From: a virus
Length of the DNA: 19,369 bases
Reading direction: 5' to 3' (one strand)
IMG/VR virus record: IMGVR_UViG_3300022538_001114
The notes below the pieces were generated by a model. It worked only from the letters and a program-made list of their open reading frames with translations. It was not told the origin of the DNA and searched no databases. Below, one piece after another: positions 11,392 through 11,653 of this stretch (positions within the stretch are counted from its first letter, which is position 1; each line of letters opens with the position of its first letter). Position numbers and translations under genes: made by a program.

Positions 11392-11653
11392 CAGTTTGTT
11401 ACATTAACGAGGGTTAATTTTGTTTATAACCTCGTTAATGGACTTAAAAAGTCTCTATAGTTTATAATGACATAATATACTATAGATCGGACTGTCGCTT
11501 CTTCAATTGAAGTCTTCTCGCTCAGTCTCTCACGCTGGCATTACCCTTGCGCCCTGTCTCCCATATGTCTGGGATTCCAAGTCAATCAGAGAAGATTTCA
11601 GTTTATTATTAATTTGTTCTAAAATTAATAAAAGGTCTGGAGGCAATCATTTT
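11392..11653 (-). other. Intervening sequence (262 nt) interrupting rtcB; putative group I intron.
   Basis: Exon 1 ends ...GGUGGUGGU with U at -1. The intron ends ...AACAAACUG with a terminal G. An in-frame UAA sits inside the intron. A GC-rich core (11507-11580) contrasts with the AT-rich genome. Candidate P7 GACUG...CAGUC flanks the palindromic hairpin CUUCAAUUGAAG. A 10-bp hairpin AUUAACGAGG...CCUCGUUAAU lies near the 3' end. A GNRA loop (GCAA) is present. Confidence 0.6.

Follow-up and report, generated by a model that had tools for sequence, protein, structure and literature searches.

A probable compact group I intron at the GGG^NHF motif of rtcB in a viral genome record and its relatives in other phage genes

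The stretch of DNA analysed here (the window) comprises 19,369 nt of the IMG/VR virus record IMGVR_UViG_3300022538_001114 and encodes on its minus strand RtcB, the 3'-phosphate/5'-OH RNA ligase, in a gene which is interrupted by a 262-nt insert with the features of a group I intron. Gene callers give two separate RtcB-domain open reading frames (ORFs) at this locus. By direct reading, exon 1 lies at 11654..12151 (166 codons, ending ...NLGTLGGG, with the last codons CTC GGT GGT GGT up to 11654) and exon 2 at 10651..11391 (246 codons plus stop, starting NHFIELQ...), which opens with AAT CAT TTC at 11391 and is translated as NHFIELQKGDDGHLWLMIHSGSRNLGHQ. Translation from 12151, whose ATG overlaps the stop of the upstream ORF (ATGA), gives a protein to which homologues align from the first residue; alternatively, exon 1 might start at one of two ATGs further upstream, 12190 and 12181. 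The insert itself runs from 11653 to 11392 with the 5' end AAAAUGAUUGCC and the 3' end ACAAACUG (in longer form AAAAUGAUUGCCUCC and ...GUAACAAACUG, respectively). A preliminary description, made without database searches, had placed an insert of this length at 11392-11653, exactly between GGG and NHF, and direct reading confirmed both boundaries. It had also noted in-frame stops and a GC-rich core, which we found as a stop 14 codons into the insert when the frame of exon 1 is continued (KMIASRPFINFRTN, then the stop) and as a GC content of up to 0.48 at the centre of the insert versus about 0.30 in its surroundings. An intein was considered and is excluded by this in-frame stop.

Excision of 11653-11392 yields an RtcB of 412 aa (start at 12151) in which the exons are joined across 11654 and 11391 as …GGUGGUGGU^AAUCAUUUC… (^ marks the junction here and below), which predicts a single protein of about 47 kDa with the junction-spanning peptide ...LGGGNHFIELQK. 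That precise removal restores the conserved core, as had been proposed, was borne out by an alignment to the RtcB structure of P. horikoshii, which showed no gap at the junction (E 5e-50; nlgtlGGGNHFielq against qlgSLGSGNHFLEVQ). By this alignment the His of NHF in the GGGNHF motif is an RtcB metal ligand, and the motifs HSGSRNLGH, HHNY and SCSHGAGR of exon 2 align with the regions of His234, His329 and His404. The spliced protein retains the aligned Asp/Cys, HSGSR, HN and SxxHGAGR motifs. The insert starts with AAAA and exon 2 with AAUC, which leaves three cut pairs with an identical product. Only one of the three, 11653/11392, combines a U at position -1 with a G as the last intron base, as had been stated in the preliminary description.

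On the minus strand the whole 262 nt of the insert (11392..11653, without an ORF) could be tiled into group I elements P1 to P10 with no remainder, in the order P1/P10 guide (intron positions 4-16), P2 (15-55), J2/3 (AAA), P3, J3/4 (UGAUUGA), P4, P5, P6/P6a, P7, P3', P8, J8/7, P7', P9, P9a, P9b and UAACAAACUG. The 5' strand of P1 consists of the last 7 nt of exon 1 (UGGUGGU, 11654..11660, with U-1 at 11654, by direct reading). It pairs with the second half of an internal guide sequence at 11638..11650, which is composed of the P10 strand AUGAUU (11650-11645, intron 4-9) followed by the P1 strand GCCUCCA (11644-11638, intron 10-16) and provides a U.G wobble at the splice site (U11654 opposite G11644). 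The P10 strand is perfectly complementary to AAUCAU at the start of exon 2 (11391-11386). A contiguous P10 plus P1 guide occurred by chance in 0.17% of random 40-mers. The terminal G (omega-G) at 11392 marks the 3' splice site.

The catalytic core follows the same strand. P3 pairs UCUUCUC (11589..11595) with GAGAAGA (11513..11519), and six of its seven pairs are compensatory in the family of related sequences described below. P4 and P5 occupy 11553..11581, with P4 (CUUG/CAGG) around J4/5 (GAAU), P5 (CCCA-GACAUA-UGGG) and J5/4 (AGA); all four P5 pairs covary, and P4 shows one compensatory change from G-C to A-U in a same-site relative (L333). Directly stacked on P4 is P6/P6a at 11532..11552 (GCGC AA GG-GUAAUG-CC A GCGU). 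Its P6a loop is GUAAUG in the window and a true GAAA tetraloop in many relatives. The GNRA loop of the preliminary description does not hold up, as covariation places the GCAA in question in the P6 5' strand and internal loop and not in a hairpin loop. The P7-like pairing GACUG/CAGUC (11527-11523 and 11494-11490) around a palindromic hairpin did stand, the hairpin CUUCAAUUGAAG being P8 (11501..11512), whose three pairs all covary in the family and also appear in the minimum free energy (MFE) fold. The P7 5' strand G[A]GACUG (11523..11529) has a bulged A11528 beside the invariant G11527, with the pairs G11527-C11490 and G11529-C11489, and G11527-C11490 is presumed to be the guanosine-binding G-C pair. 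J8/7 and the P7 3' strand lie together at 11489..11500 (AAGCGA plus CAGUCC) and include GCGAYAGUC, which is invariant in the family.

The peripheral elements were assigned from the MFE fold. P2 (11599..11639) is a predicted helix without covariation, in which a CAG/CUG base closes a private AU-rich hairpin; this CAG...CUG base is constant in 16 same-site introns, with an enclosed segment of 6-38 nt. P9, P9a and P9b lie at 11485-11455, 11453-11441 and 11440-11402, respectively. The P9 stem is compensatory among 16 ORF-less same-site introns (CUCUGG/CCAGAG, CUCAAG/CUUGAG, CUAUAG/CUAUAG), while P9a and P9b are predicted hairpins. The thermodynamic fold reproduced every nested helix, among them P2, P5, P6, P7, P8 and P9, with z = -4.5. 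A tRNA scan of the window found none.

For a comparative analysis we aligned 65 unique cores of related sequences, excluding the window. RNAalifold on these 65 cores independently recovered P3, P4, P5, P6/P6a and P8. Covariation was counted on a hand-drawn structure of the same cores that included the P7 pseudoknot. Standard pairing was found in 98.4% of the cells, compared to 40-51% when the 3' partners were slid by 1-3 columns; 20 of the 30 pairs changed on both sides and none of 500 shuffles reached the observed covariation score. In P6, pair 61-93 is CG in 42 and GC in 23 copies, pair 63-91 is CG in 44 and GC in 21, and pair 67-88 shows three pair types. P7 has four invariant middle pairs flanked by pairs that covary (97-157: AU 52, GC 11, UA 2; 103-152: AU 49, GC 16). 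G99-C156 is invariant in all 65 copies and next to it, in column 98, either C or A stays unpaired, an arrangement which is that of the group I guanosine-binding site. In the family core P4 stacks on P6, J4/5 (GAA) and J5/4 (RA) are purine-rich, and J8/7 measures 6 nt. A covariance model built from this alignment (R1, with P7 as sequence only) scored the window at 11600-11488 with 110.4 bits over its full length (E 4e-25) and matched nowhere else in the window. R1 also matched intron 3 of phage Twort orf142, a group I intron confirmed by Rfam, with 19.6 bits (E 3e-4), and P3, P4, J4/5, P5, P6 and a P7 strand of that intron aligned in the same order as in R1.

The same position of rtcB proved to be occupied repeatedly. 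The related rtcB loci in IMG/VR numbered 37, of which about 33 had no insert, and 20 uninterrupted alleles showed a contiguous GGN GGN GGN AAY CAY TTY. The empty target site is GGTGGTGGT^AATCATTT, for example in L133, whose allele equals the joined sequence of the window exactly (GGTGGTGGTAATCATTT). Another rtcB (L158) carried an insert of 1067 nt at the same residue, with an R1 core of 104.5 bits and an ORF of 271 aa for a LAGLIDADG endonuclease (PF14528, 34 bits). A search with the junction pattern detected same-site introns in six IMG/VR and 32 metagenome contigs (at least 38 besides the window), including 25 distinct complete introns, with lengths of 201-397 nt for ORF-less and 1032-1097 nt for ORF-bearing forms. 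All 25 have their terminal G directly before AAUCA, and the guide layout of P10 plus P1 is kept in all same-site introns. The exon sequences around them are strongly diverged. Restoration of the reading frame was checked in 26 of the 32 metagenome contigs, the other six being cut off or near a contig end. A cut after …GGU and after the terminal G restored LGGG^NH(F/Y) in 25 of these 26, the exception being L344. In L344 the insert of 658 nt contains a truncated LAGLIDADG remnant of 130 aa, which looks like decay of an endonuclease gene.

Two unrelated endonuclease types were found at this one rtcB site, a LAGLIDADG type and an I-TevI-type zinc finger/NUMOD3 type with a weak DUF559 match. The long introns accordingly divide into two endonuclease families, with L334, L352, L356, L360, L362 and L166 on one side and L351 and L354/L164 on the other; L354/L164 encode the I-TevI zinc finger/NUMOD3 ORF. 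With a pattern that fixed only U-1, GGUGGU preceded the site in all six IMG/VR intron alleles as opposed to two of the 20 empty alleles, a bias that fits either a pairing constraint or co-conversion. A relaxed guide pattern with only U-1 fixed returned 40 chance matches and no new intron. The intron of the window is 59-73% identical to the other same-site introns. Among 16 of these (L331-L361) most share the P9a loop GCAGAAAUGAC and a 3' motif, AGUAACAA(N)nG, which probably form tertiary contacts or P9.0. Two introns of 201 nt lack both, and the window has the 3' motif only. A separate rtcB observation was made in L160 (2428-3426), where an N-terminal HNH-like region (…HFHHKNP…CANCHSIKH) continues in frame into the C-terminal part of RtcB, from …DYINIHHNY… onward; the 3 kb upstream contain no 5' part of rtcB. 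Possibly the HN metal-ligand motif was invaded as a second site; alternatively, L160 may carry a fragment of the gene.

Relatives of the insert were also present in other genes. In GenBank phages, a sensitive blastn search with the region gave matches in two records, both confined to the centre of the insert. In Roseobacter phage CRP-118 (L001, OR420741) the match lies between two coding sequences (CDSs) that are both named 'ribonucleotide reductase', and in Manatee Spring podovirus MW202674 (L002) between two 'P22 coat protein' CDSs. The intron of CRP-118, a cultured phage, is unannotated and 172 nt long (L001 2480-2651, corresponding to OR420741 35054-35225). It is cut after …AAAUCCGU, an exon end that pairs with GCGGAUUU, and its 3' end reads ...GUGAG. 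It splits a Cys codon, and its excision restores TNP^CSEI…CNL, the active-site motif of ribonucleotide reductase. This guide layout (AAAUCCGU/GCGGAUUU) is the same as that in rtcB and occurs in L101 as well. For the coat protein intron (L002 2495-2711) a hand search for P1 did not locate the 5' splice site; the record MW202674 has a 'hypothetical protein' CDS that covers the ribozyme core.

The core 15-mer CTGATTGACTTGGAA was found in at least 120 IMG/VR stretches. Among the matches listed, about 103 had the full core, i.e. also the downstream GCGAYAGUC, and of these 71 were unique ORF-less cores and in about 20 the P6 or P8 loop was enlarged by 200-720 nt. P2 is missing from most members of the family. 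The core was present in only four of 50,697 GenBank phage records, in none of them annotated as an intron. In bacterial genomes the 15-mer was mostly a chance occurrence, with the full core in nine of 120 matches (an isolate of Terribacillus and several metagenome-assembled genomes). As judged from its core, the insert belongs to an abundant family of compact phage group I introns with more than 100 copies in viral contigs. The cultured Desulfovibrio phage 7757 (142 kb) harbours a 72%-identical copy of the core (PV062637/OR395405 81360-81483), and its records are without annotation. In eight single viral contigs (L004, L014, L019, L020, L035, L043, L058 and L063) two family copies lie 200-1100 nt apart, so that one gene, or a set of adjacent genes, may contain more than one intron.

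We conclude that 11392-11653 is very probably a mobile group I intron in rtcB that lacks its own homing endonuclease gene. The compact ORF-less group I intron of the preliminary description is thus supported by covariation, the family model, the splice sites and the endonuclease-bearing introns at the same site. The transcript would fold into the P3-P8/P7 pseudoknot and the P4-P6 domain, and the guide (intron 4-16) would form P1 with the last bases of exon 1, placing the U.G wobble where cleavage occurs, and P10 with the first bases of exon 2. Free guanosine, bound in P7 by the G-C pair that adjoins the bulged A, would then attack after U11654. The terminal G11392 would subsequently take the guanosine site and the 3'-OH of exon 1 would attack after G11392, joining the exons as GGU^AAU and restoring ...LGGGNHF.... 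No homing endonuclease gene was recognisable near rtcB, and we infer that an endonuclease-driven homing event brought this copy into the window and that such a gene was either lost afterwards or absent from the start.

Several observations weigh against this assignment. Rfam 15 cmscan of the window gave no match to RF00028 (Intron_gpI) at the gathering score, and neither did a scan of 11300-11750 at E<=10. The preliminary description had itself proposed an Rfam scan as a check of the intron, and on its own terms this result counts against it. P1 taken alone is no better than chance, being matched by 41% of random 40-mers (the exon is G/U-rich); it contains a UxU mismatch at -4, and it is probably limited to 5-6 bp, since its 3' end shares nucleotides with the CAG/CUG base of P2, which is conserved. 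The search patterns partly fixed the exon bases GGUGGU and AAUCA, by which P1 and P10 were not open to a covariation test. The window lacks the P9a loop GCAGAAAUGAC that is common to most of its same-site relatives. Finally, both splicing and protein-independent self-splicing of the RNA from the window are predictions made from sequence.

The Rfam results need to be read together with their controls. RF00028 detected the three introns of phage Twort orf142 with 64-101 bits and missed a T4-type td intron carrying an endonuclease ORF. It found nothing in 20 family-carrying viral contigs (127 kb, each with a relative of the insert), and an Rfam scan of L001 and L002 gave no group I match. We attribute the negative result to a limited reach of the model, because it found the Twort introns and missed both the td intron and the 20 family contigs. 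A study of phage introns from 2025 (PMC11878797) describes the Rfam group I model as incomplete, with possible failures on phage variants. The RF00028 score is a detection tool and not a defining property of the group I class. The sole Rfam matches in the scans of the window, L001, L002 and the 20 family contigs were chance ones to structure-less models of long noncoding RNAs (lncRNAs). One of these was TUG1_2, a model of a human lncRNA region without base pairs, which matched the window at 11640-11722 on the minus strand, across the junction of exon 1 and intron, with 31 bits (E 0.004) and which we took as chance. In the phage Twort control (L125 33050-33128) a RAGATH-18 RNA was matched with 67.6 bits, unrelated to the rtcB intron.

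The best of the other explanations, in our view unlikely, is that the insert descends from a group I intron but has lost the ability to splice, in an rtcB that is a decaying pseudogene. The missing endonuclease gene, the weak P1, the absence of the conserved P9a loop and the private AU-rich insertion in P2 would all fit such a relic. However, all core pairs are intact and the R1 score of 110 bits is at least that of the endonuclease-bearing L158 (104.5 bits). Both exons are open and contain all aligned catalytic motifs of RtcB, and the same-site introns of 201 nt (L167, L169) have no P9a at all and yet sit in intact host genes.

A considerably less probable explanation takes the two RtcB-domain ORFs of the gene callers at face value, i.e. 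rtcB would truly be split into two assembling polypeptides and the insert would be a spacer or a different mobile element. An ATG 21 codons into exon 2 (MIHSGS...) offers a start for the second polypeptide, but a product from this ATG would lose Asn-His-Phe including the metal-ligand His, and relatives such as L168 have no Met near the start of exon 2. The supposed spacer is moreover a conserved, covarying ribozyme core that is present in unrelated genes. The interrupted frame by itself would also suit ribosome bypass as in gene 60 or another intron class (group II, bulge-helix-bulge), for which we see next to no chance: the gap is 262 nt where T4 gene 60 has about 50 nt, take-off would be from GGU while the codon before exon 2 is CUG, with no matching landing codon before AAU, the insert (AAAAUG...ACUG) has no GUGYG...AY, no domain V and no reverse transcriptase ORF and is far too short for group II, no group II model of Rfam matched the window at the gathering score or 11300-11750 at E<=10, and the topology is that of a P3/P7 pseudoknot with P4-P6.

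Compact group I introns are also known from bacterial tRNA genes (subgroup IC3), such as the tRNA-Ile intron of Azoarcus with about 205 nt and the tRNA-Leu intron of cyanobacteria, where they reside in the anticodon loops of tRNAs in cellular genomes. Like the group I intron of rtcB these are very small, without ORFs and with little beyond the P1-P9 core. The family described here differs by its location in phage protein-coding genes, by the endonuclease genes in some copies, and by members that appear even smaller (172 nt in CRP-118, 201 nt in rtcB). RtcB is also a host of inteins, as in the enzyme of P. horikoshii. The RtcB inteins are likewise selfish, endonuclease-driven and aimed at conserved active-site motifs of the same enzyme, but they splice at the protein level from an open frame, whereas the insert of the window combines an in-frame stop with an RNA catalytic core. 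Passages in two papers name RtcB among intein hosts (PMC4760082, PMC10710043).

The phage group I introns (Twort orf142 I1-I3; T4 td, nrdB and sunY; Bastillevirinae, PMC11878797) share host type and core topology with the rtcB intron, as well as the insertion at a highly conserved codon of a gene of nucleic acid metabolism and the optional homing endonuclease ORFs in peripheral loops. The P7 strands of T4 td (AACGACUA/AUAGUCUG) are identical to those of the family and the AACGACUA motif is found in Twort, too. In contrast to these introns, the family of the window has no P7.1/P7.2, a P4 of only 4 bp and a J3/4 of 7 nt, and it escapes RF00028, which detects the Twort introns. The mark of subgroup IA2, P7.1/P7.2, is missing family-wide, with P3' (11519-11513 in the window) directly abutting P8 (11512-11501). 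With lengths of 172-262 nt, a P4 of 4 bp, a J3/4 of 7 nt, no P7.1/P7.2 and in most cases no P2, these ultra-compact phage introns could tentatively be regarded as a distinct structural subgroup of group I that has escaped recognition, a proposal about which we remain rather doubtful. If it is true, few natural group I ribozymes that self-splice would be as small as the 172-nt intron of CRP-118.

An intron in rtcB had been called unusual in the preliminary description. It is not a one-off, as it recurs in dozens of environmental contigs; the literature searched contained no report of a group I intron in rtcB. New are rtcB as a host gene and the unannotated family, not the mechanism, which involves no new chemistry or biological principle. 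For annotation, the consequence is that rtcB is called as two fragments here and in dozens of environmental contigs, and the same intron family is behind the pairs of 'ribonucleotide reductase' and 'coat protein' genes listed in GenBank phage records. A family-specific covariance model would mend many of these split gene calls. An abundant clade of phage introns escapes the only group I model of Rfam, in support of the published concern about its incompleteness (PMC11878797). The GGGNHF metal-binding motif of RtcB furthermore joins the conserved sites that are hit by homing elements, in this case with at least two unrelated endonuclease families. Natural ribozymes of 172-201 nt, if active, might also be of use for studies of folding and for engineering.

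The genome that carries the rtcB intron is that of an uncultivated, probably large, dsDNA phage. The window matches a contig from JGI sample 3300022539, and a megablast of the whole window against GenBank phages gave no match. Genes in the neighbourhood of rtcB encode an ATP-dependent DNA ligase, an RNase H, a PP2C phosphatase, a PAS protein, an isochorismatase-like protein and a Ros/MucR protein; of the ten neighbouring ORFs searched against PHROGs the DNA ligase alone was recognised. Three genes upstream of rtcB, an ORF of 848 aa (13874-16420, minus strand) matched the Pfam domain MVP_shoulder with 98.9 bits (E 2.5e-28) and contained a Vault_3 repeat, and we predict it to be a major-vault-protein-like gene in this viral-looking, AT-rich genome.

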